NCBI GenBank assembly: GCA_029974275.1
Contig: JARKSN010000219.1
Span: forward strand, 1 to 19,561
Reading direction: 5' to 3'
Length of the DNA: 19,561 bases
From: Candidatus Hydrogenedentota bacterium
GTDB lineage: Bacteria > Hydrogenedentota > Hydrogenedentia > Hydrogenedentales > SLHB01
Shown: piece by piece, positions 3,289-14,539 of the stretch
How positions within the stretch are numbered: position 1 is the first letter of the stretch
Layout of the letters: every line of letters starts with the position of its first letter
Notes under the pieces: generated by a model
Seen by the model: the letters and a program-made list of their open reading frames with translations, nothing else
The model's database searches: none
What the model was told of the DNA's origin: nothing
Position numbers and translations under genes: made by a program

Positions 3289-4221
3289 ATGAGTAAGGTT
3301 CTGCTTGTGGATGACGACGTGGATTTAGCCGAACTGGTCAAGACAAAGCTGGCCGCCGAAGGGCATCAGGTCATGACCATCCATTCGGGGGAAGGGGCGT
3401 TCGAGCTGGCAAAACAGGTCAAGCCCCATATCGCCCTGCTCGACATCATGCTTCCCGGCGTGACGGGATACCAGATTTGCCGTCGAATCCGTAAAGACCC
3501 GGAACTCTACCGCACCGCCATTCTTATTTTGACGGCTTTGGGCGAAGAGCCAGAAGTTCTCCACGGCCTTGAACAAGGCGCGGACGATTACCTGGCAAAG
3601 CCCTTCAAGCTCGACTATCTCATGGAAAAAATTCAGTCCTTGAACACCCTTTTGGAATCCATCGAGCGCCGGAATCCAGTGACCCAACTCCCCGGCACCG
3701 ACGCCATCAAACGCGAAATCAATCATCGCCTGGCGCGCGGCATGGCGATCGCCGCGTGTTACATCGACGTCTGCAGCTTCAAAGGATACTGCGCCGTCTA
3801 CAATCAACAGGGGCAACGGCATGTCTTGGAATTCATGGGCGCAATGCTCCGCCAACTTGCGCGCGATATGGGCATTTACGAAAGCTTCATCGCCCATCTT
3901 GGCGGTGAACATTTCGTGGTGCTGCTGAATCTGGAAGACTACGAACGGTACTGCGGCACACTGATGATGACGTTTGACCGAAACGTCCGCCAATTCTACT
4001 CCGAAAAGGAACTCGCCCAAGGGTACATCGTCGCCGTCGACAAACACGGCCGCGAAGTGCGATGCCCCTTGATGGCGCTCTCCATCGGCGTGGCGCATAC
4101 GCAATACCGGCAATACAAAAGCGCCAAAAAAATGTTCGAAGTATTGGCCCAGACCCGCCAAAAGGCCCAGCCAGACGGCAAAAGCGTCATGTTTGTCGAC
4201 CGGCGCCGTTCCGATCGGTAA
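3289..4221 (+). CDS. Response regulator receiver domain + degenerate GGDEF-like domain
   Basis: Receiver: VLLVDDD, LLDIMLP (phospho-Asp), ILTA, GADDYLAKPF. Output domain: NPVTQLPG, YIDVCSFK, AHLGGEHFVV, LSIGVA. Confidence 0.88.
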   Translation: MSKVLLVDDDVDLAELVKTKLAAEGHQVMTIHSGEGAFELAKQVKPHIALLDIMLPGVTGYQICRRIRKDPELYRTAILILTALGEEPEVLHGLEQGADDYLAKPFKLDYLMEKIQSLNTLLESIERRNPVTQLPGTDAIKREINHRLARGMAIAACYIDVCSFKGYCAVYNQQGQRHVLEFMGAMLRQLARDMGIYESFIAHLGGEHFVVLLNLEDYERYCGTLMMTFDRNVRQFYSEKELAQGYIVAVDKHGREVRCPLMALSIGVAHTQYRQYKSAKKMFEVLAQTRQKAQPDGKSVMFVDRRRSDR

Positions 4222-4982: not shown

Positions 4983-5007
4983 ATTCGTATGCAGACGTAG
5001 AGACAGC

Positions 5008-5694
5008 CTATTCGGCGAAGTGAAGATAGCCGAAGCGATCCGGCTGATGGAACTCAAATTTCTCGCCGATGGAAGACCAGGAACCCCAGTGCGGATGGGA
5101 ATTCTCGACGGCGCATTTGTTGAAGTTGGCGCGCCAGGTTTGCCCGGCGACCTTTCCGAGAGGGCCCATGTAGGCCTCGAACACTGCAAAGGGAATGAAA
5201 TATTCGAGATGCCACGTACACGGATCGGCAATTTCGGGATCAACCCGACGCGGCATTGTGCCAAATAATCGCACGGTGCGGCCGATTTCCTCGGATACCC
5301 GCTCGTATTGCTCAAAAGCATCGTCCTTGCGGGTGGGATCGACAATGTACTGCAACAAAAGACTCCCGCCGCAATTCATCTCGAAATTCATGTAACCTTT
5401 TTCAGGCTTTGGTTTTACGAAAAACTCGACGCAAGCGTCCTTGTACACGTGGCTCTGGTATTCCGTGTGCGTGCAGCGGACGTACCGGTCCTCCACGCGG
5501 AAAATTCCGTAAATGCCATCGTCATCGTAAACCGATTTCGCGTGCACCACGGGGTGATGGTCGCTGCTGGCCGCATGGTAGTGCGTCACGGCGAGCGGCT
5601 CCACGCTCTTCCACGCCGGCCCGTCCCATTGGCCATCCAAGCCCGGCTTCGTCGGCGCCCGGCGAATCGTGTATTCAGGCAACTCTAGCGACAT
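5008..5694 (-). CDS. Carbohydrate-binding family 9-like (DOMON-like) protein, no signal peptide
   Basis: LDGQWDGPAW, YDDDGIYGIF, VYKDACVEFF, YMNFEMNCGG, WHLEYFIPF, WRANFNKC and FHQPDRFG resemble CBM9-like sugar-binding proteins. RBS AGGGGAG in the 14-nt gap after the GH38 stop. Confidence 0.8.
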   Translation of the reverse strand: MSLELPEYTIRRAPTKPGLDGQWDGPAWKSVEPLAVTHYHAASSDHHPVVHAKSVYDDDGIYGIFRVEDRYVRCTHTEYQSHVYKDACVEFFVKPKPEKGYMNFEMNCGGSLLLQYIVDPTRKDDAFEQYERVSEEIGRTVRLFGTMPRRVDPEIADPCTWHLEYFIPFAVFEAYMGPLGKVAGQTWRANFNKCAVENSHPHWGSWSSIGEKFEFHQPDRFGYLHFAE

Positions 5695-5708
5695 CAGCTT
5701 GCTCCCCT

Positions 5709-8510
5709 TTACTCCACTTCGAATTCGACCGCCATGATCTTGCCCTTGGGCACGGTCACGGAGACGTTGTTTTTGGTCACCTTCAGTTTATCGCCGCGTT
5801 CCTCGGCCAAGTTCACCAGGTAAGCGGCCTTGACTTCAAAGCCTGCGCTCAAGGTCGTTCGCACTTCCTTGCTCGTGGGATTGAAAAAACGCACGAGCAG
5901 CGTGTCGCGGTCTTCCATTTTTTTCACGGCGCTGAGGACAACGTTCGGCCCCTCTATGGACAGGAAGCCCCGGTCGGGTTCGAAACAGCCTTCCTGCTTG
6001 CCAAACTGGCAGGCGCGCATCGGGGCATTGAAAGCTAGCGCCGCGTCGTAAAGACGCGCCTCGGTCCACAGGCCTTCGTGCGGCATCAGCGCGTAGCGGA
6101 AGGTGAAAGAGCGCAACGACTGCGAGCTCTCATCGCCGGGATACTCCATCCACAAGCGGTTGTCACACGGAATGCGCATCCGCACGCCGCGCACCAGGCC
6201 CATCGCCATCGTCGTGTTGTCGTCGTGTTCGAGGACTTCATAGTCCTTCGCGGCATCCAACAACACGCCAAGTCCGTTACGCCCATCGCTGAGATCGAAC
6301 CACAACTGGGCGGGATGACGCGCGAGTTCGTTGCCGCGCAGTTCGCCGTTGACGCTTGGTGTGATCGGGAATTCCGTCACCGAGAAACTGCCCTCGGCCC
6401 AGGTCTTCTTCGCGGCAAGCCCCGTCGGGAACGCGACCTTGACGTAATGGTCGCGCGCCGTGTTTTCAAGCGTCGTAACGACTTCGAGCGCGGGCGAACC
6501 CTTGCGCAACGTGACGGTCACCTTGATGGGCATGTCCACGCGCACGTCCGATCGCTTTTCCTTGGACCAATCGAACTCGGCGGGGATGCGCCACGTCATC
6601 TTGATGTCGAACACCACCGCCAACGGCCCGTTCACGCGCACCGCGACTTCCGCAGGCAGGCCAATGGTGTTGAGCATGGCATCGTCGCCGGGCGTCGCGG
6701 ACATCCACATGTTGCCGATGTCGCCCTGGTCCATAAAGTAGTTGAGGCGCGTATAGGTGTGATTGGTGTCGTTGTCCGTCACATCCAACGTGCCGTCCGG
6801 GTTGATTTTGACGCGGATGAATTCGTTCTCGGCGCAATTCGGCCCGGCCAACATGTTCTCCGCAAGAATGCGCGGCGGATCCCAGTCCTCGTGCGGATAG
6901 GGGTACTCGTTCTTCTGCGACCACTTCAGCTTGAAGACCTTGTAGCCCAAGGCCGGGACGTCCTCGGCCATGAAATAAACGTGCACCTTCGTGCTATAGA
7001 ACGGCATGTTGCGACTGCGCGGGTGATAGATGCCGGCGCGCGTCGATTTGCGTTCGGCTTCCTGCACGACGACCGCATGGCCGTCGAGGTCTTCGATGAT
7101 GAGGTGGTTGAGCTTGACGGTCGCGGGCACGTCCACAAACGCCTCGATGACTTCACTGCGGTCGAAGGAACTCGGGTTATGCACCGCGAGGAAGTACTCG
7201 CAGTCCTCGATGCCGCTCGTGTCGATCTCCTTGGTGATGTTCTGCAAGCCGCGTCGGACCAGTCCTTGGCCGACGACATGCGCCTGCTTCAACCGCGCGA
7301 TTTCACCTTCGCCAAGAGTCACGGGACCGAGGCCGTGCATCGAGTCGTGGGCGTGACTCTGGAACAAGAGCTTCCAGGCCTTGTCAAGATAGGTCTTCGG
7401 GAATTGCTCGATGCCGTGCAGCCACGCAAACGTCGACAACGGTTCCGCCCACCGCAGCAACGTGTTCTCGGCGTGGCTGTTCTCGGTAGGGATCTCGGGA
7501 TGGATCGTGAACACATCGGTATGGATCGCGCCAACCGGACCATCGCGCATCGGCCCACTGACGACATCGAGGTCTTTGCGCCCCTTCATGCCCGCGCGCA
7601 TTTCTTCGAGGTAGGCCGCCAAGGTGCTGTGGCGCACGTCGTACTTGTCGCCGTACTGCTTCTGAATTTCCCTGATGTACTCGGAGGTCATCGGGTGCGG
7701 CTCGGTGAAATCGGTGCCTTCGAAGAAAAGCAACGAGTTGGGCACGGCCGTGCCTTCGACCGTCTTCAGCGTGCGCTCCATGCCGTTCTCGACATTGGCG
7801 GGATAGAACGAGGTCTCGGGGTCGAGGATGTCATAGAACCAGCCGTGGTTGTCGGGGTCGGCGGTGTGGAATATCTTGCCCATTTCGCCCCAGTGGTATT
7901 GCCAGTCCTTATGCCACTGATCGCGGTCGTAGACGATGGGGATGTGACCCGCGAAGAAGAAGTTCCAGCGCGCTTCACGGCCCAACCGCGACGCGAACGC
8001 CCGCGTGCCGTCCGGCGCTTCCCAAAAGAACTCGGGATACTTCGTGCGCTTCGGGTCCATGTACTTGTAGAAGATGATCGTGTCGATGCCAAAGTCCGCA
8101 TATATCTGCGGCAATTGGGCGATTTGGCCGAAGGAAAAGACGTTGTAGCCGCACATCAACGGCGTGCCGAATTCCGACGCCATGCGCATGCCGTACGCCA
8201 AATTGCGCACGACCGACTCGCCGTTGATCGGCGCGCAATCGGGGAGCGTGAACCACGGCCCGATCTCGAGGCGGCCGTCCTGCACCAGTTTGACGATCTC
8301 GTCGCGACGCTCGGGACGGATTTCAAGATAGTCGTCAATCAGCGTCATTTGCCCATCCATCATGAACGACGCGAAGTTGGGATCGTCCTCAAAAATATCC
8401 AGCAGATGATCGATGCAATCCACCAGACGCATCCGCGTCCGCTCGAACTCCCAGCGGAATTCGCGGTCCCAGTGGGTATAACTCACGATATGAATACGCG
8501 GCTTTGCCAT
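5709..8510 (-). CDS. GH38 alpha-mannosidase-fold protein (MngB-like), atypical active site
   Basis: THWDRE, MDGQ, IGPWFTLPD, GESVVRNL, EFFWEAPDGT, EGTD, QSHAHDS and C-terminal LSAVKKMED..LLVRFFNP..VNLAEE. RBS GGAGG 8 nt upstream. No signal peptide. Confidence 0.88.
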   Translation of the reverse strand: MAKPRIHIVSYTHWDREFRWEFERTRMRLVDCIDHLLDIFEDDPNFASFMMDGQMTLIDDYLEIRPERRDEIVKLVQDGRLEIGPWFTLPDCAPINGESVVRNLAYGMRMASEFGTPLMCGYNVFSFGQIAQLPQIYADFGIDTIIFYKYMDPKRTKYPEFFWEAPDGTRAFASRLGREARWNFFFAGHIPIVYDRDQWHKDWQYHWGEMGKIFHTADPDNHGWFYDILDPETSFYPANVENGMERTLKTVEGTAVPNSLLFFEGTDFTEPHPMTSEYIREIQKQYGDKYDVRHSTLAAYLEEMRAGMKGRKDLDVVSGPMRDGPVGAIHTDVFTIHPEIPTENSHAENTLLRWAEPLSTFAWLHGIEQFPKTYLDKAWKLLFQSHAHDSMHGLGPVTLGEGEIARLKQAHVVGQGLVRRGLQNITKEIDTSGIEDCEYFLAVHNPSSFDRSEVIEAFVDVPATVKLNHLIIEDLDGHAVVVQEAERKSTRAGIYHPRSRNMPFYSTKVHVYFMAEDVPALGYKVFKLKWSQKNEYPYPHEDWDPPRILAENMLAGPNCAENEFIRVKINPDGTLDVTDNDTNHTYTRLNYFMDQGDIGNMWMSATPGDDAMLNTIGLPAEVAVRVNGPLAVVFDIKMTWRIPAEFDWSKEKRSDVRVDMPIKVTVTLRKGSPALEVVTTLENTARDHYVKVAFPTGLAAKKTWAEGSFSVTEFPITPSVNGELRGNELARHPAQLWFDLSDGRNGLGVLLDAAKDYEVLEHDDNTTMAMGLVRGVRMRIPCDNRLWMEYPGDESSQSLRSFTFRYALMPHEGLWTEARLYDAALAFNAPMRACQFGKQEGCFEPDRGFLSIEGPNVVLSAVKKMEDRDTLLVRFFNPTSKEVRTTLSAGFEVKAAYLVNLAEERGDKLKVTKNNVSVTVPKGKIMAVEFEVE

Positions 8511-8536
8511 CGGAATGTCCTCCCTCGTTCTCGTCT

Positions 8537-9922
8537 TTAACGCAACAACGACTCGGGCAAGAATACCCGGTGTTTCAACATCACTTCGGGCACGCCGCCG
8601 TAGGCGACGTGCGTGGCGGCGTTGAAGGCATGGCCCTTCGTTTCAGGGAACGGAAGCGCACAGCACACAGGGATGCCCGCGGCCCGGATCGCGATGGTCC
8701 CGGATTCGCTGTCCTCGAAACCCACGACCTTGTTGAAGTCGGCGGGCGCAATCCCCATTTGGTGCAGCGCCAACGAATACAGATCCCGGTGCGGCTTGAG
8801 GCGTATCTCGCTCGAATCGCTGGCCGTGATGAAACCGTCGTAGTAGTTCTTGTAGTCCGCGAACTGCTCGCACAGAAACAGCCGCTTTTCGGCGGGCACG
8901 TCCCACGTCTTGATTTCCTCGACCAACACGCGGAACACCTCGCTCAACACGATGTTCGCCTCGTAGTGAATCGACGAGGTCACAATCGACACCGCCAACG
9001 GGCGGTCCTTGAAGTACTTCGCCAACTTCGCGAGATTGGGGCGCAACGCGTCGATCTCGGCCTTGGACTCGCCGATGGACACGAGGTAGTCCGCGAGGAT
9101 CGGGTAACAGGCATCGGCACAATCGTCGAGCCAACCCTTAATCAAGGCAAGAAAAACGCCTATGCCATGCATCGGTTCGATTAGGTGTTTGTCGGCGCTG
9201 CCGAGAATGGCCTTGGCGAACTCCGCACCTTCCCCTTTTGCGAGATGGGCAAGGATGAAATGGTAGCGTTGGTAGTAGATGTCGACTGCCGCGCGCACGA
9301 TGCTCGTGACATCGTTGAACGGCAGACGCGGCGCATAGTGCGCGGTCACTTGTGCAATCGCCTCGCGCGCACACGTGCTGTCCAGGTCTGCGGCCTTGGT
9401 CAACTGCACGAAACGCTCGTCGCGCATCATGTCGCCGATGCCCAGCGCATACAGATTGCTCGCAACCTCGCGGCGACGTCCCGGATCGGCGGCGTGGCCC
9501 ACCGTCCATGCGGCCGCATAAACGAGAAAGGATTGCAACGCCGACGCCTGGATGTCAGCCTGGTACGTGCGAATGAGGTATTCGACATGCTTGGTCGTGC
9601 TGTTGCCAATGATGTGCGGATAGTCGCGCTCGCGGTCCAGTCCCGCCCACGCCGTATCATGCTCGCGCCCGGTGATCCGGCGCACCATCATCTCGAGCGA
9701 ATGCAGGCACAACGGCTCGGTCGTCGTCGTCGTGCCGTCCATGTCCATGACCGCCCCGAGGATACCCTCCGACAATGCTTCAGCGCGCGGCGCCAGGGGA
9801 TAAATATCATACGGCGGATATACGTAACCGGGGTTCTCGACGACGGCATATTCGTCGCCGAAACGCGAAATCAGCTCGATCGCGCCGGATAGGTCGGTGT
9901 ATTTAGGTATTGGATTGGTCAT
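8537..9922 (-). CDS. HAD-superfamily phosphatase/mutase (beta-PGM-like motifs) with very large cap, 461 aa
   Basis: Motif I DMDGT, motif II IVTSS, motif III KPHRDLY, motif IV GFEDSESG. Start re-called to ATG 9922 (GGGGAG upstream); the longer ORF would overlap ppnP. Confidence 0.82.
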   Translation of the reverse strand: MTNPIPKYTDLSGAIELISRFGDEYAVVENPGYVYPPYDIYPLAPRAEALSEGILGAVMDMDGTTTTTEPLCLHSLEMMVRRITGREHDTAWAGLDRERDYPHIIGNSTTKHVEYLIRTYQADIQASALQSFLVYAAAWTVGHAADPGRRREVASNLYALGIGDMMRDERFVQLTKAADLDSTCAREAIAQVTAHYAPRLPFNDVTSIVRAAVDIYYQRYHFILAHLAKGEGAEFAKAILGSADKHLIEPMHGIGVFLALIKGWLDDCADACYPILADYLVSIGESKAEIDALRPNLAKLAKYFKDRPLAVSIVTSSIHYEANIVLSEVFRVLVEEIKTWDVPAEKRLFLCEQFADYKNYYDGFITASDSSEIRLKPHRDLYSLALHQMGIAPADFNKVVGFEDSESGTIAIRAAGIPVCCALPFPETKGHAFNAATHVAYGGVPEVMLKHRVFLPESLLR

Positions 9923-10048
9923 CTCGCTCTCTCCCCATCGCATCATTCGCCCAACAGGTCCGGGGCGCCGCGCCCCGATCAAGCCACGGGCGCGAATTGT
10001 ACCTAATCGCCGCTCAGCGATAAAGAGGAGAAAAGGCGATCGTTTCGG

Positions 10049-10077
10049 TTGTCGCCTCTGGGGAATTTGGGTATCAT
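10049..10077 (+). promoter_or_regulatory. Putative sigma70 promoter for ppnP
   Basis: TTGTCG (10049-10054), 17-nt spacer, TATCAT (10072-10077). RBS AGGAGA at 10113-10118. Confidence 0.55.
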
Positions 10078-10124
10078 GCCTCCCCACAACCCTGGAGGAT
10101 GGGTCGCAACACAGGAGAATCGTC

Positions 10125-10454
10125 ATGACGCACCCAACGCCCCTGGAATTCGCCGCTGTCACTGCCGTATGCAAGGCGAACATCTATTTCGATGGAAACG
10201 TCGTCAGCCACACGGTGAAGTTCGCCGATGGCTCTAAAAAGACCCTGGGACTCATCTATCCAGGATCCTACGAGTTCCGCACCGGCGCGCCCGAGCGCAT
10301 GGAAATCATCGCGGGAACCTGCCGCGCAAAACTTTCGGACACGACCGACTGGACCGTCTACCCAGCCGGCGCATTTTTCGATGTGCCCGGCGATTCCTCC
10401 TTCGAGATTGCAGTGGATGACGGCATCGTGGAATACGTTTGTTCCTTTCAGTAA
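10125..10454 (+). CDS. ppnP: Pyrimidine/purine nucleoside phosphorylase (YaiE/DUF1255 cupin)
   Basis: KANIYFDGNVVSHTVKFADGSKKTLGLIYPGSYEFRTGAPERMEI...F.VPGDSSF...YVCSF is the family signature. Start re-called to ATG 10125 after AGGAGA. Confidence 0.92.
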   Translation: MTHPTPLEFAAVTAVCKANIYFDGNVVSHTVKFADGSKKTLGLIYPGSYEFRTGAPERMEIIAGTCRAKLSDTTDWTVYPAGAFFDVPGDSSFEIAVDDGIVEYVCSFQ

Positions 10455-10499
10455 ATCCAGCGGACGTCCCGCGTTCCAACCATGCAAGGAAGAGAGAGC

Positions 10500-11591
10500 A
10501 TGAAAACGATCCCCTTCTGGCGGCAAATGGCGGCATTGCGCGACGGAGACGCCTTCGGCTTTTCAAACGGCGGATGGGCATACGACGCCTATCCCGAGTT
10601 GGAAACCCTGGATGCGGGCCGGGCCATGACCATCGCCGACATTGAAGGCCCCGCCGTCATCAACCGCATACACTGCACCCGTCACTTCGTGAAGCCTCCC
10701 TCCGCGGAGGAGGGGCAATCCGAAGAACTCGATGCCCTGTGCGGCCGGGGCATTATCTTTGAAGTGTATTACAATGGCGAAGCGACGCCTGCCGTGCGGG
10801 TCCCTCTCGCCGATTTTTTCGCGGACGGCTGCTGCGGGCGCGCCCTGCACTTCTCGTCGCCGTTTCTGGAAAAATCGCTGGAATCCTACAACTGCCATAT
10901 TCCCATGCCCTTTGCAGGATCCGCCCGCGTGGTTTTGTGCAACGAGACGCCTCACAACTTCATGAATTACAGCTTTGTCGAGTTCGAGCGGTTGTCTGCA
11001 TGGGACCCGGAACTCGGCTACTTTCATGCAACATGGCGGCGATGGGCTTTCCCTTTGTCATTCGCGAGCGACGAAATGTTTTGGCGCGTCGAAGGACGCG
11101 GCCATCTCGTAGGGAGATCCTGGAGCGTGGCCACGGATGAAACTCTATTTCCCGAGTTCGGATTCGTGATGGAGGGGAACAACCAAGTCCTCATCGATGG
11201 CGCAGCGGCTCCCCGCGCGGATTATCTCGGCTCGGAAGATTCATTCGGGTTTGCATGGGGGTTTCGCGGCGTGTTTTCGGGACATCGCAGCGGCATCAAC
11301 TTTGTGCGTCAAAAAGGTCCCGCGTTGCTCAGTCTGTACGAGTTCCGGGACGTAAACGCCATTCCGTTCAATTCCTCCCTGGAATGGCGCGTAAATTGGT
11401 TGCACGAGCTCCGCGGCGATCAGGCAGTTCGCGAACTCATTGGGGAGCGCAACGCCGCAGGAGGTTGCTGGGTCGATTACGCAACCACGCACTACTGGTA
11501 TCAGCAGCGCGTCGGATATCCGCACGTTCCGCTTCCGCCGCTTGAAGAACGCGTCAAGACCGTATTGCGCCAAAATCCGGCGCAGCCATAG
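10500..11591 (+). CDS. DUF2961 / glycoside hydrolase family 172-like protein
   Basis: IADIEGPAVINRIHCT, VRVPLADFF, YNCHIPMPF, YFHATWRR, EGRGHLVG, MEGNNQVLIDG, GSEDSFGFAWG, IPFNSSL and YWYQ. ATG 10500 with AAGGA upstream. No signal peptide. Confidence 0.82.
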   Translation: MKTIPFWRQMAALRDGDAFGFSNGGWAYDAYPELETLDAGRAMTIADIEGPAVINRIHCTRHFVKPPSAEEGQSEELDALCGRGIIFEVYYNGEATPAVRVPLADFFADGCCGRALHFSSPFLEKSLESYNCHIPMPFAGSARVVLCNETPHNFMNYSFVEFERLSAWDPELGYFHATWRRWAFPLSFASDEMFWRVEGRGHLVGRSWSVATDETLFPEFGFVMEGNNQVLIDGAAAPRADYLGSEDSFGFAWGFRGVFSGHRSGINFVRQKGPALLSLYEFRDVNAIPFNSSLEWRVNWLHELRGDQAVRELIGERNAAGGCWVDYATTHYWYQQRVGYPHVPLPPLEERVKTVLRQNPAQP

Positions 11592-11620: not shown

Positions 11621-14539
11621 TCACCAAAATATGTATTTCAGGAACGTCGCCTTGCTCGCGGCATCGAGTTCGTCAAAATCGACGATCTCATAGCGATTGT
11701 CGTCGATATCAAAAATAATGCGGCCGTTTACGCCGCCTTCCTGCACGCTTTCGCGCTGCCAACGACGCGTGAGAAACTCGATCTCTCCCTTGTCCGTAGC
11801 AACATGCCACACCAAGAAGCCCATGTTGTCCTTGTTCTCGCGAATGCTGTTGATGCTCTCGATATAATGGATGAAATAGCGCTTGCCCAACTCGTGCTCG
11901 ACAGCCAGACGGGAACTAGGGGCAAGCTCTTTCAACCGGCGAATCATTCCAATCTGGTGGTGTTCAAGCGCCGAGGCGCCCGTCCACAGTGCAATGAATT
12001 CCCGCGGACGCGACACCGGAAAACACCGGTACGCGCGGACCTGGTCGTAGCTTTCGCCTTCGTACACCACGCGCATGCCGCCCTCATCGAGCGAATAGAT
12101 GTGGAGAGCTTTCGGATCCAAATAACGCATGCGCGGCACGATGCTGTTGCGGACGGGCTTCGCCGGTTGCGTGCGCAATGCCTTGGCCTTGGCCTGCTCG
12201 GCCCTATCCAGGTCGTCCAACGACTTCAGGTTGTCGATGTTGTCGGCGCTCTGCCCGCTAAGCTGCGACTGAATGTCCACGAGCTTCTTATAGATGCCCT
12301 TTTGCGCGATCAACTCCTCGTGCGTGCCTTGCTCGCGGATAATGCCTTCCTCGAAAACAAGGATGCGGTCACAATTCTGCAAGGTCGAAAGTCGGTGAGC
12401 GATGGCGATGGTCGTACGGCCAAGACTCAAGGCCTCCAATGCCCGCTGAATCTCGCGCTCCGCGATGGTGTCCACGCTCGACGTCGCCTCGTCCAAAATC
12501 AACACGTGTGGATTGTGCACCAACGCGCGCGCAATGGCGACACGCTGGCGCTCGCCGCCGGACAATCCGGACCCGCCTTCGCCCAGGCGCGAATCGTAGC
12601 CATCGTGATTGCGCGTAATGAACATGTGCGCATTCGCCTGAAGCGCCGCATCGAGAATGGCCTCGGGCGCCACATCCGGATTGCCGTACGAGATGTTCTC
12701 CGCAATCGTCCCGCGGAAAAGAAAGGGGTCCTGCGCCACGATGCCCACCTGACGCCGCAGACAGGATTTGCGAATGCGCCGGATATCGATGTTGTCAATG
12801 GTAATGCCGCCCTCGCTAGGCTCGTAAAAACGCATCATCAGGCTCACCGTCGTGGATTTGCCGCAGCCGCTATGCCCCACGATGCCGATCATCTCTCCGG
12901 GACGGATTTGGAAACTGATATCGTGCAGCACAGGAATGTGCCGGTCATATCCGAAAGTGACATTCTTGAACTCAATCCCCCCGTGAATCTCGAAGTCGAC
13001 CATGTCCGGCGTCTCCTGGAATTCGGGGTCTTGGTCGAGCACCTCGAAGACGCGGTGAGCCTGCGTGGTGAACTGGGTGAACCATGTCGACATCTGGGTC
13101 AGCGAGTTCAACGGCCCATAAAACATGCCCAAATATCCCAGAAACGCCAGGAGTTCGCCCATGGACATGTTCCCGGTCTTGTGAACGATGGCCAAGCCGC
13201 CGATCAGCCAGATGGGGAAACTTCCGAGCTGAAACACAAAACCCATCGTGGGATAAAAAATCGCCGAGGGCAATCCGACGTTCAGGCCCGCATCCCGAAA
13301 ACGTCCGCTGAACTTCGCAAAACGGGCCTGCTCGCGCTTCTCCTGTGCGAATGCCTTGACCACGCGGACGCCGGACAAGGCCGCGTGCAGGTTGTTATTG
13401 AGATCGGAACGCGTAGTCCAGTATTTGCGCCAGAGCGGCACGATATGCCTGTAGAACCAGACCGTGAACGCCATGACAAAGGGAGCGGGCAGACACGCCC
13501 AGAGCGCCAGTTGCCAGCTAGTGCCAAACATGAACACCACGGTCCCCAGCAGTAAAAGCATCTGGAACCCGAAACCAGACGTGAGCTGGTTGATGAACCC
13601 CTGCAGCGCCTCGATATCCTGCGAACAGCGGGTCATGAGCTGCCCAACGGGGTGAATGTCATGGTAGCGGACCGCCATGTCCTGAAGCTTCTGAAACACG
13701 TCGCGGCGCAGGTCATACCCCATTCGATTGTTGATGCGCGACGCGATGAGTTCACGCAAAATGCTGACGCCGGCCCCCAACAAGGCAGTGACCGCCAACA
13801 ACGCGATAAGCAGCCACAGCCAATGAGTCCGCGCTTCCGGGCTATTGTCCTGAATCCCCACCGCCTGCGAAATGAGGGCGAACCACACCGGCGTGATTTG
13901 GCTCTCGTTGAGAACATTGTCGACCAGCACCTTGACCAATTGCTGCGGCACCAACATCGAAAAAATGGTGAGGACGACCAAGACCATGCCCGCCAGGATC
14001 GTCGGCCAATACTGCTTCGTGCGCAGCAGAAAGCGGAAAAACACCGTGCCCCGGCGCACCTTCGCATGGGGAGAGTCCAAACTGCTCTTCAGGGAGGCAT
14101 CCTCGTCCAGCGGCTCATCCTTGGCCAGGACAGGCAACTGCTTCCCCTCGGCTAGGGATTTGATCGTCGCCGCCACCTTCGCGAATTTCTCGGCATACTT
14201 GTTGGAAAAACGAATGAACTCCTCATACATGCCATTCGTCTTGATCTCGATGAAACCCGACCCAACGCGCGTGTCCGTTCGCGCGCTGTCGACCCCCTCC
14301 AAGGCTTCCTCTTTCAGCAAAAACGCCTGGTCCTCTTCCTCGTCGAGCATGTATACAAGGATATGCGTGGCCGTCACCACGACCCAGGATTCGGAGTACT
14401 CGCCGGCAATGTCGAGATCGGTGTCGGTGGCGACAAGGACTTGGTCCCCGCGGATGCCGCGCGCGACAAGGTCCTTCTCGATAAGTTCCGGCAATGGACG
14501 GCGGATGGATAACGATGAAGACGCTTCTTGGTCTGTCAT
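11621..14539 (-). CDS. ABC exporter (N-terminal soluble domain + TMD + NBD) fused to a C-terminal DUF1854-like domain
   Basis: About 6 hydrophobic helices, VVKAFAQE, Walker A GHSGCGKST, Q-loop VAQDPFLF, LSGGERQR, LILDEATS and AHRLST. The tail RAYRCFPVS..IGMI..ELGKRYF..WHVATDKG..DIDDNRYEI.DFDELD resembles DUF1854. Confidence 0.88.
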   Translation of the reverse strand: MTDQEASSSLSIRRPLPELIEKDLVARGIRGDQVLVATDTDLDIAGEYSESWVVVTATHILVYMLDEEEDQAFLLKEEALEGVDSARTDTRVGSGFIEIKTNGMYEEFIRFSNKYAEKFAKVAATIKSLAEGKQLPVLAKDEPLDEDASLKSSLDSPHAKVRRGTVFFRFLLRTKQYWPTILAGMVLVVLTIFSMLVPQQLVKVLVDNVLNESQITPVWFALISQAVGIQDNSPEARTHWLWLLIALLAVTALLGAGVSILRELIASRINNRMGYDLRRDVFQKLQDMAVRYHDIHPVGQLMTRCSQDIEALQGFINQLTSGFGFQMLLLLGTVVFMFGTSWQLALWACLPAPFVMAFTVWFYRHIVPLWRKYWTTRSDLNNNLHAALSGVRVVKAFAQEKREQARFAKFSGRFRDAGLNVGLPSAIFYPTMGFVFQLGSFPIWLIGGLAIVHKTGNMSMGELLAFLGYLGMFYGPLNSLTQMSTWFTQFTTQAHRVFEVLDQDPEFQETPDMVDFEIHGGIEFKNVTFGYDRHIPVLHDISFQIRPGEMIGIVGHSGCGKSTTVSLMMRFYEPSEGGITIDNIDIRRIRKSCLRRQVGIVAQDPFLFRGTIAENISYGNPDVAPEAILDAALQANAHMFITRNHDGYDSRLGEGGSGLSGGERQRVAIARALVHNPHVLILDEATSSVDTIAEREIQRALEALSLGRTTIAIAHRLSTLQNCDRILVFEEGIIREQGTHEELIAQKGIYKKLVDIQSQLSGQSADNIDNLKSLDDLDRAEQAKAKALRTQPAKPVRNSIVPRMRYLDPKALHIYSLDEGGMRVVYEGESYDQVRAYRCFPVSRPREFIALWTGASALEHHQIGMIRRLKELAPSSRLAVEHELGKRYFIHYIESINSIRENKDNMGFLVWHVATDKGEIEFLTRRWQRESVQEGGVNGRIIFDIDDNRYEIVDFDELDAASKATFLKYIFW

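Follow-up and report, generated by a model that had tools for sequence, protein, structure and literature searches.

What does a retaining glycosidase do once the side chain that attacks the sugar has been replaced? The question is raised by a gene on contig JARKSN010000219.1 of a Candidatus Hydrogenedentota bacterium (assembly GCA_029974275.1, a genome of 4.38 Mb in 342 contigs). The window analysed here is this entire contig (C40), 19,561 bp in length. The gene encodes a protein with the fold of glycoside hydrolase family 38 (GH38), here called P0001, in which Phe125 stands where the family carries its nucleophilic aspartate. GH38 is a textbook retaining family that includes Golgi mannosidase II and lysosomal mannosidase and, to our knowledge, automatic annotation names every member an alpha-mannosidase or a mannosylglycerate hydrolase. 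From the comparative evidence below, we argue for P0001 being a working enzyme of a large and old branch of GH38. As for its chemistry, our favoured reading, to which we give a probability of roughly 0.3, is that the enzyme is a phosphorylase: an anion-binding site would stand in for the lost nucleophile, and the attack on the sugar would come from inorganic phosphate.

The preliminary description of this DNA had read residues 121-129 as GYNVFSFGQ, with F125 encoded by TTT at 8138-8136 and standing at the GH38 nucleophile position, and our re-translation gives the same residues and codon. In a phmmer comparison with Protein Data Bank (PDB) chains, GYNVFSFG pairs without gaps with the GY-F-P-D-T-F-G stretch of the Enterococcus faecalis GH38 (3LVT/5KBP) and of the Streptococcus pyogenes enzyme SpGH38 (2WYH), in agreement with that placement, and the numbering of P0001 equals that of SpGH38 across residues 1-154. 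In the portion of the SpGH38 report available (PMC2815779), D125 is the nucleophile and D232 the acid/base, the Zn ligands are H13, D15, D125 and H351, W18 and F127 are stacking residues, and R149 and Y192 hydrogen-bond the nucleophile carboxylate, with R149 also contacting the sugar O6; the GH38 metal binds the pair of swainsonine hydroxyls that stand in for mannose O2 and O3. Because the numbering matches and D125 has both roles in SpGH38, F125 occupies the position of both the nucleophile and the fourth metal ligand. Translation and alignment also agree with the earlier statements that H13-W-D15, HAHD (386-389) and EGTD (264-267) are retained and that several pocket positions have changed: F18 replaces W18 (DREF for DREW), K149 replaces R149 (FYKY) and Y11 replaces H11 (YTH for HTH).

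The phenylalanine is a feature of the organism rather than of one assembly. We compared positions 7900-8520 with contigs from four runs belonging to four studies, all of which cover 8131-8151. The TTT codon is unchanged in the contigs of all four independent metagenome runs, in line with the previous judgement that a sequencing error is unlikely. One run is identical to the window and the other three show a variant strain with 15 substitutions in this interval; 14 of these are synonymous, and this part of the gene is therefore under purifying selection in nature. The stretch 5000-10200 is present in wastewater, digester and activated-sludge DNA runs from 15 studies, and none of the 19 runs listed is an RNA run. 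The 933-residue open reading frame (ORF) likewise proved intact, as described before, with no stop and with GGGAGG 8 nt before the ATG. The high G+C content yields long antisense ORFs as well, for example one of 820 aa at 6078-8540 (+) across the GH38 gene. By inspection of its sequence, P0001 has no signal peptide and its catalytic domain begins at residue 6, so the protein is predicted to be cytoplasmic.

Judged by its sequence and fold, P0001 is a GH38 member, but it lacks the family's defining mechanistic feature. Pfam matches to PF01074 (E = 2e-31), PF07748 (E = 9e-15) and PF17677 (E = 2e-12) place the GH38 N, C and C2 domains above the cut-offs, and the middle domain PF09261 falls below its own. 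The phmmer search against the PDB gave E = 5e-85 for the E. faecalis enzyme and E = 5e-67 for SpGH38. These two are bacterial cytoplasmic retaining alpha-mannosidases that share their five-domain fold with P0001. An AlphaFold2 (AF2) model built on an 80-sequence alignment has a predicted local distance difference test (pLDDT) score of 93.7 and a predicted template modelling (pTM) score of 0.93, and its top Foldseek matches are 5KBP, 2WYI and 2WYH, with template modelling (TM) scores of 0.84-0.89, E = 1e-73 and 23-25% identity. Behind these come Ams1, Bl_Man38 and Golgi mannosidase II, with entries titled D204A nucleophile and D341N acid/base mutants among them. No member of the aspartate-less clade described below is found among the solved structures in the Foldseek and PDB matches. 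The best curated family is the mannosylglycerate hydrolase model NF007331 (E = 4e-118), and several homologues carry the Joint Genome Institute (JGI) name mannosylglycerate hydrolase; the ESM Atlas and the names of sequence clusters yielded nothing more specific. Since P0001 scores 395.5 bits, far under the cut-off of 1138, we rejected its identity as an equivalog of MngB. The MngB family also uses a classical aspartate nucleophile, unlike P0001.

Whether the loss of the aspartate is clade-wide had been left as a question, and the answer is yes: it is absent from all 119 close homologues that cover the site and from 116 of 150 more broadly sampled sequences. A word-indexed search retrieved 120 homologues of 51-99% identity from metagenome-assembled genomes of Hydrogenedentota, Armatimonadota, Lentisphaerota, Clostridia, Planctomycetota and Verrucomicrobiota, one of them a fragment without the region; related genes also occur in metagenome-assembled genomes of Victivallis and Anaerocolumna. 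Position 125 is Phe in 118 of the remainder and Tyr in one, and the motif reads GYNVFSFG in 113, GYSVFSFG in three, and GYDIFSFG, GHNVFSFG and GYSVYSFG in one each. An exhaustive HMMER search of 1.84 billion cluster representatives (50% identity) then gave 2,213 proteins at E <= 1e-30. A motif scan of the best 150 of these found Asp in 52, Phe in 39, Thr in 12, Ser, Cys and Ala in four each, Asn in three and Gly in one, with no motif in 31; about two thirds of these nearest representatives thus lack the residue on which the family's chemistry depends. The 150-sequence alignment on which the remaining counts rest holds 29 members of the query's own subfamily (query included), 87 other Asp-less sequences and 34 of the Asp type; its column 125 contains 75 Phe, 34 Asp, 18 Thr, seven Cys, six Ser, four Ala, three Asn and one each of Tyr, Arg and Gly.

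In a FastTree phylogeny of this alignment built without column 125, 113 of the 116 Asp-less rows form one clade with 97% local support, and the other three lie at an unresolved base beside one Asp-type row. Because the tree needs just two changes between Asp and non-Asp and gathers 113 rows in one clade, the aspartate was lost about once, deep in the GH38 family. Inside the clade the tree requires 28 or more changes at residue 125; the side chain that took over from the aspartate is not itself conserved. This clade-wide loss, together with the kept metal and acid/base residues, supports the original proposal of a GH38 subfamily unable to use the classical retaining mechanism with an aspartate nucleophile.

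The rest of the active site is strongly conserved. Among the 116 Asp-less sequences, H13 is kept in 114, D15 in 113, D267 in 114, H388 in 115 and D389 in 114; D267 is Asp in 33 of the 34 Asp-type sequences, and the metal and acid/base residues are about equally kept in both types. Because these five residues are each kept in at least 113 of 116 sequences and the strain differences are nearly all synonymous (14/15), the active site must be under selection. P0001 and SpGH38 have in common H13, D15, H388 (H351), D389 (D352), D267 (D232), the aromatic residue at 18 and F127. They differ in D125 to F, Y192 to R181, Y19 to R19, R149 to K149 and Y574 to W602, and in an insert of about 45 residues after residue 184 that also sets P0001 apart from the E. 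faecalis enzyme. Of the mechanistic features of GH38, then, the three other metal ligands and the general acid/base are present, whereas the nucleophile and the Tyr/Arg pair that supports it are not, R181 and K149 standing in place of the latter in the query's subfamily.

Several of these differences distinguish the whole clade. Position 181 is Tyr in 31 of 34 Asp-type sequences and Arg in 110 of 116 Asp-less ones, with Lys in four more. We equate this column with SpGH38 Y192 because an Asn two residues further on is shared and SpGH38 A189 aligns with G177; since Y192 hydrogen-bonds the nucleophile in SpGH38, an arginine now sits where the partner of the carboxylate was. Position 19 goes from Tyr (33/34) to Arg (87/116), and position 175, variable in the Asp type, is Arg in 91/116. 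Similar switches are seen at position 129 (His in 30/34 to Gln in 106/116), position 268 (His in 33/34 to Phe, Ser, Thr or Gln) and position 602 (Tyr in 33/34 to Trp in 96/116). Position 149 is Arg or Lys in 110 and position 215 His or Arg in 105 of the 116. Three Asp-type sisters of the clade (P0203, P0208 and P0221) retain D125, Y19 and Y181, and the basal Ser-type members already carry R19 and K181. By the column statistics of the 150-sequence alignment, no acidic residue peculiar to the Asp-less clade reaches 75% conservation; the closest candidate for a new acid is D218 (74/116), in the clade-specific insert. The HMM alignment to 3LVT and 2WYH breaks at profile positions 179-237, and the segment aligns to no solved structure. 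By alignment, an anionic set of one Asp and two Tyr thus appears to have been swapped for a neutral residue and two or three arginines beside a three-ligand metal site. This pattern reads as the signature of a predicted anion pocket rather than of decay.

The gene immediately upstream of P0001 encodes a putative HAD-IA phosphotransferase with matches to PF00702/PF13419. Its motifs D60-x-D62-G-T (D60, D62 and T64), T315, K376 and E403-D404 are invariant in 52 aligned homologues and comprise the full HAD-IA set of DxDxT, Thr/Ser, Lys and acidic pair. The longest ORF, 8537-10183 (-), has 548 aa; orthologues and the GGGGAGAG site support the ATG at 9922, and the longer ORF probably overcalls the start by 87 codons. 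In an AF2 model (pLDDT 92.7), a Rossmann-type core bears a very large, all-helical cap. The nearest solved relatives, all weak matches, belong to the sugar-phosphate phosphatases and beta-phosphoglucomutases; besides the latter they comprise CbbY, the mannitol-1-phosphate phosphatase domain of MtlD, TM1254 and YniC. The fold matches did not separate mutase from phosphatase. The HAD profile finds exactly one strong copy in the window's genome. In one family of the phylum (f3) all 23 genomes carry a member, mostly distant from GH38 genes, and this group of 460-residue proteins with an enlarged cap probably has a general role not previously described. Two apparent fusions of the HAD protein (in genomes G020 and G077) were rejected, as the long open frames around the homologue hold no additional Pfam domain.

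The pairing recurs in related loci. Among 56 loci of close GH38-like relatives, a HAD HMM finds the gene in 36. In 28 of these loci the GH38 gene is near-full and flanked by no less than 1.5 kb on either side; 22 of the 28 contain a HAD gene, within 300 bp in 15 and 0.6-6.6 kb away in seven. The paired loci span Hydrogenedentota, Clostridia, Verrucomicrobiota and Planctomycetota, and the gene order differs among them: the HAD gene precedes the GH38 gene in the window, L001, L038 and L039, converges with it in L017, and lies downstream in many Clostridia, where its start overlaps the GH38 stop. L018 and L047 have a second Asp-less GH38 gene, of the Thr type, and there the HAD gene comes after it. 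In L028 (10808-13432) and L032 (11795-14428), both from Clostridia, a third type of GH38-like protein, of about 875 aa (GH38 N, DUF5054 and GH38 C2) lies between or beside the Phe-type GH38 and the HAD gene. Some loci look catabolic, with a solute-binding protein, ABC permeases, AraC/LacI regulators, GH127-like, GH2, GH4 and GH42-like enzymes, an AGE-type epimerase and a GDSL esterase, and L039 holds a phosphomannose isomerase gene. In many Clostridia the GH38/HAD pair is by itself, surrounded by genes of pyrimidine, purine or aromatic amino-acid metabolism or of sporulation. No recurring kinase or phosphotransferase system (PTS) gene lies beside the pair in the related loci examined. Because P0001 has no signal peptide, the pair is often alone and neither kinase nor PTS is nearby, a phosphate ester would have to arise within the pair. 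The cytoplasmic location and linked sugar-phosphate enzyme that characterise glycoside phosphorylases are both found here.

Among 135 genomes of the phylum, only four (G117, G118, G102 and G092) have an orthologue of the window's GH38 gene (>= 56% identity). It adjoins the HAD gene in G117 and G102 and lies on another contig in G118, and G092 has no HAD match. The dependence between the two genes is one-sided. The window's genome itself holds five Phe-type GH38 paralogues and at least one canonical gene with GYVPDPFG, at C204:20453-23266. The four other Phe-type paralogues (L067-L070; C268:90373-93300, C298:23870-26746, C191:59560-62352 and C167:30653-33445) are 33-36% identical to P0001. Those on C268 and C191 lie directly beside GT4 glycosyltransferase genes, and the one on C298 is near a GH92 gene. 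We also examined 44 paralogue loci, 40 from genomes of the same phylum and these four. Their contexts are mostly unrelated singletons; sulfatases (near Asp-less paralogues in eight of the 44), GSU2086-family, GmhA-like SIS and prepilin-type proteins recur, and none of these recurrent neighbours pointed to a substrate. In L080, L084 and L108 (genomes G132, G109 and G128), an Asp-less GH38 gene and a gene for a canonical alpha-mannosidase of the Ams1 type (GH38, 1044-1073 aa) are arranged in tandem, which suggests that the two types cooperate on mannosides.

We take P0001-type proteins to be active because the acid/base and metal site are conserved, the gene is under selection, the paralogues have expanded and the gene is coupled to a neighbour in an operon. 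The coupled gain of arginines argues that an anion occupies the region vacated by the aspartate, and the conserved neighbour with a DxDxT-type HAD motif argues that, for this orthologue, the anion is phosphate. In the phosphorylase that we favour, an anion pocket of the neutral residue and two or three arginines would form beside the anomeric carbon and the three-ligand metal site. With R181, K149, R19 and perhaps the metal to hold it, phosphate would attack C1 of an intracellular glycoside of the alpha-mannoside type while D267 protonates the leaving group. The product would be a sugar 1-phosphate, of the beta configuration if the attack is direct, and the adjacent HAD-IA phosphotransferase would then process it. 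The candidate basic residues of the phosphate site are the clade-specific R19, R175, R181 and H/R215, as placed by alignment. Three points of this scheme are inferred: the arginines facing the vacated site, phosphate as the anion, and phosphorolysis as the reaction. The inverting GH65 alpha-glucoside phosphorylases usually have beta-phosphoglucomutase as their partner, an enzyme that is among the nearest solved relatives of the HAD protein. The carriers of the clade are anaerobic organisms of gut, rumen, digester and wastewater, and ATP-saving phosphorolysis is common in such organisms.

A number of observations weigh against phosphorolysis. The placement of R19, R175 and R181 depends on the alignment to SpGH38. 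Phe, which is bulkier than Asp, is the commonest residue at 125 (75/116), and with it in place phosphate may not fit where the nucleophile was. The best engineered nucleophile-rescue enzymes carry Gly, Ser or Ala, according to the portion of PMC8819650 available. Many Asp-less GH38 genes have no HAD neighbour: it is missing from six of the 28 well-flanked loci (L002, L003, L005, L006, L023 and L041) and from the surroundings of the four other Phe-type paralogues of the genome. Of the 135 phylum genomes, 52 have the HAD family and 91 have GH38-like genes at E <= 1e-100, for the most part Asp-less paralogues judging by the rows listed, and the two do not co-track. The HAD protein itself looks more like a phosphatase than a mutase. 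It scores 20.6-30.1 bits against beta-phosphoglucomutase cut-offs of 189.4 (TIGR01990) and 153.35 (TIGR02009), and presumably it lacks the distal-phosphate residues of that enzyme. If it is a plain phosphatase, as it may be, phosphorolysis would bring no energetic gain.

The anion might instead belong to the substrate. P0001 could be a hydrolase of an anionic glycoside (a 6-phospho-, sulfo- or uronic-type mannoside, or a phosphoglycerate-type solute), an explanation that we regard as somewhat unlikely. Here, a charge on the substrate near O6 and the nucleophile region would repel an aspartate and be bound by K149, R181 and R19, water or a group of the substrate itself would cleave the bond by a non-classical route, and dephosphorylation by the HAD phosphatase would precede or follow cleavage. 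The gains of R19, R175 and R181 fit this equally well, and an anion at C6 would sit where SpGH38 R149 contacts both O6 and the nucleophile (PMC2815779, in part). The phosphatase-like look of the HAD protein fits too, and the eight paralogue loci with sulfatases could reflect different anions for different paralogues, although sulfatases are abundant in these phyla and the adjacency may be chance. The best NCBIfam match, the mannosylglycerate hydrolase model, points the same way, as the E. coli member acts on a 6-phospho substrate; that type of enzyme, however, handles the 6-phosphate with its aspartate retained. Nor does a kinase or PTS recur beside the pair to make a phosphorylated substrate, and a nucleophile would still be required. 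Hydrolysis of neutral alpha-mannosides with no protein nucleophile is a less probable account, and one we rate as decidedly doubtful. Water on the freed metal site could act with inversion, as in GH47 and GH92, which are Ca-dependent mannosidases with metal-assisted water, or a metal-activated 2-OH could form a 1,2-anhydro sugar, as in GH99, where the 2-OH participates. H13, D15 and H388, which bind the metal, remain in place along with D389, which binds O2/O3, and three loci pair an Asp-less GH38 with an Ams1-type mannosidase. Free variation at 125 among Phe, Thr, Cys, Ser, Ala and Asn, with its 28 or more changes on the tree, also suits a side chain with no chemical role. What hydrolysis of a neutral substrate explains is neither the coupled gain of two or three arginines nor the conserved HAD neighbour.

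Transfer rather than cleavage is very unlikely in our estimate, and some of the gene contexts recall it. A front-face (SNi-like) glycosyl-transfer enzyme, or a natural 'glycosynthase', would use residue 125, aromatic or small, to shield an oxocarbenium-like state. An activated donor such as a sugar 1-phosphate would pass its sugar to an acceptor that carries phosphate, and the action of the HAD phosphatase would make the step irreversible, as in two-step compatible-solute pathways. Osmolyte synthesis is standardly laid out as a glycosyl-transfer enzyme with a HAD phosphatase, the GH38/HAD pair often has only housekeeping genes around it, and two paralogues of the window's genome adjoin GT4 glycosyltransferases. 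Other loci are catabolic, with ABC sugar importers, AraC/LacI regulators and further glycosidases, the interchange of Phe, Thr, Ser and Ala is a poor fit to a strict aromatic shield, and we know of no natural GH38 precedent for front-face transfer. Precedents by engineering exist: a retaining glycosidase has been turned into an SNi synthase by mutation of its nucleophile, and glycosynthases are nucleophile mutants (PMC8819650, in part). Just as improbable is a pseudoenzyme whose metal-dependent pocket is kept for sensing or sequestering a glycoside. The conservation of D267 in 114/116 sequences, the full four-domain architecture of 930 aa across a deep clade, five paralogues in one genome and the translational coupling to an enzyme gene in many loci all speak against a protein that only binds sugar. 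Loss of the nucleophile is nonetheless a classic route to lectin-like relatives of glycosidases, the metal site could be retained for binding alone, and purifying selection on the catalytic domain would fit a binding protein too and is hence not decisive. The preliminary description had allowed for an external nucleophile, a different reaction or sugar binding only; two or three new arginines and a conserved HAD neighbour narrow the choice towards an anion-dependent mechanism but do not settle it.

Table 1. Features of the window (19,561 bp) that concern the GH38-like gene and its neighbours.
Feature	Coordinates	Strand	Basis or remark
GH38-fold protein gene (P0001)	5709..8510	-	933 aa, no internal stop in translation
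GYNVFSFGQ, residues 121-129, replacing the GH38 nucleophile motif	8124..8150	-	translation and alignment
F125 codon TTT	8136..8138	-	counterpart of SpGH38 D125, which is nucleophile and fourth Zn ligand
GGGAGG, ribosome-binding site for the GH38-like gene	8519..8524	-	8 nt ahead of ATG
H13-W-D15, kept metal ligands	8466..8474	-	Zn ligands in SpGH38
R19 codon CGC	8454..8456	-	clade-specific Arg adjoining sugar-stacking residue 18
R175 codon CGG	7986..7988	-	third clade-enriched Arg
R181 codon CGC	7968..7970	-	clade-specific Arg at the place of SpGH38 Y192
Clade-specific segment, residues about 179-230	7821..7976	-	about 45 residues missing from most Asp-type GH38
D267, kept general acid/base	7710..7712	-	alignment; D232 of SpGH38
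H388-D389, kept metal ligand and sugar-binding Asp	7344..7349	-	alignment; H351/D352 of SpGH38
HAD-IA phosphotransferase gene (putative)	8537..9922	-	461 aa from ATG at 9922; 26 nt upstream of the GH38-like gene, same strand
CBM9_2-like ORF	5008..5694	-	228 aa; PF16011, E = 3e-33; begins 15 nt past the GH38 stop, own GGGGAG site
DUF2961 (GH172-type) gene	10482-11591	+	divergent from the HAD/GH38 pair

Two other neighbours were considered as members of the system (Table 1). The CBM9_2-like ORF may be co-transcribed with the GH38-like gene; it was rejected as a member, since tblastn finds it beside none of the 56 relatives. The GH172-type gene was rejected likewise, with a homologue near GH38 in one of the 56 loci (L002). 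Elsewhere in the window, 11621-14539 (-) encodes a 972-aa ABC exporter with a C-terminal DUF1854 domain, for which 'cyanophycin metabolism-associated ABC transporter' is the best-scoring NCBIfam model, with 509 bits against a cut-off of 880. The response regulator at 3289-4221 (+) combines a receiver domain with a GGDEF match that is partial and falls below threshold; it may be a degenerate diguanylate cyclase.

Among known systems, the operons of GH65 phosphorylases (for maltose, trehalose and kojibiose) follow the same proposed logic of cytoplasmic phosphorolysis with a HAD-IA neighbour taking the sugar phosphate. The GH65 enzymes have an unrelated fold and are natively inverting, whereas P0001 would be a retaining scaffold minus its nucleophile, and the HAD partner of P0001 is about twice the length of beta-phosphoglucomutase, has a much enlarged helical cap and falls short of the model cut-offs. 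Sialidases use a Tyr nucleophile and an Arg triad for an anionic substrate. They share with GH99, GH47/GH92 and engineered glycosynthases and SNi synthases that no protein carboxylate attacks C1, a comparison drawn from general knowledge and, for the engineered enzymes, from part of PMC8819650. Features of these systems are echoed in P0001, namely a metal on O2/O3, an Arg cluster (in P0001 only predicted to face an anion) and a neutral nucleophile position; they are all other folds or laboratory mutants, and none is a natural GH38. The available part of PMC8819650 treats engineered analogues only, that is, glycosynthases, an SNi synthase and conversions of glycosidases to phosphorylases. The full-text literature searched, which has subscription journals outside its coverage, describes neither an Asp-less GH38 clade nor a GH38 phosphorylase.

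The Asp-less clade is large and annotated everywhere as mannosidase, and its chemistry is directly testable. Tentatively, this widespread branch of GH38 may consist of nucleophile-free, anion-dependent enzymes, and the window orthologue may be the first natural GH38 phosphorylase, possibly passing beta-mannose 1-phosphate to an undescribed HAD enzyme. A natural nucleophile-free scaffold is of interest for engineering glycosynthases and phosphorylases for glycoside synthesis. If the proteins are active, their mechanism would be new to GH38, whether by phosphorolysis, by metal-water or neighbouring-group catalysis or by substrate assistance, and their substrates may be new as well in abundant uncultured anaerobes of gut, rumen and digester. 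Many 'mannosidase' predictions made from metagenomes on the basis of carbohydrate-active enzyme (CAZyme) families would then be wrong. Should the phosphorylase reading be true, the pair would represent a new route of alpha-mannoside catabolism in anaerobes.

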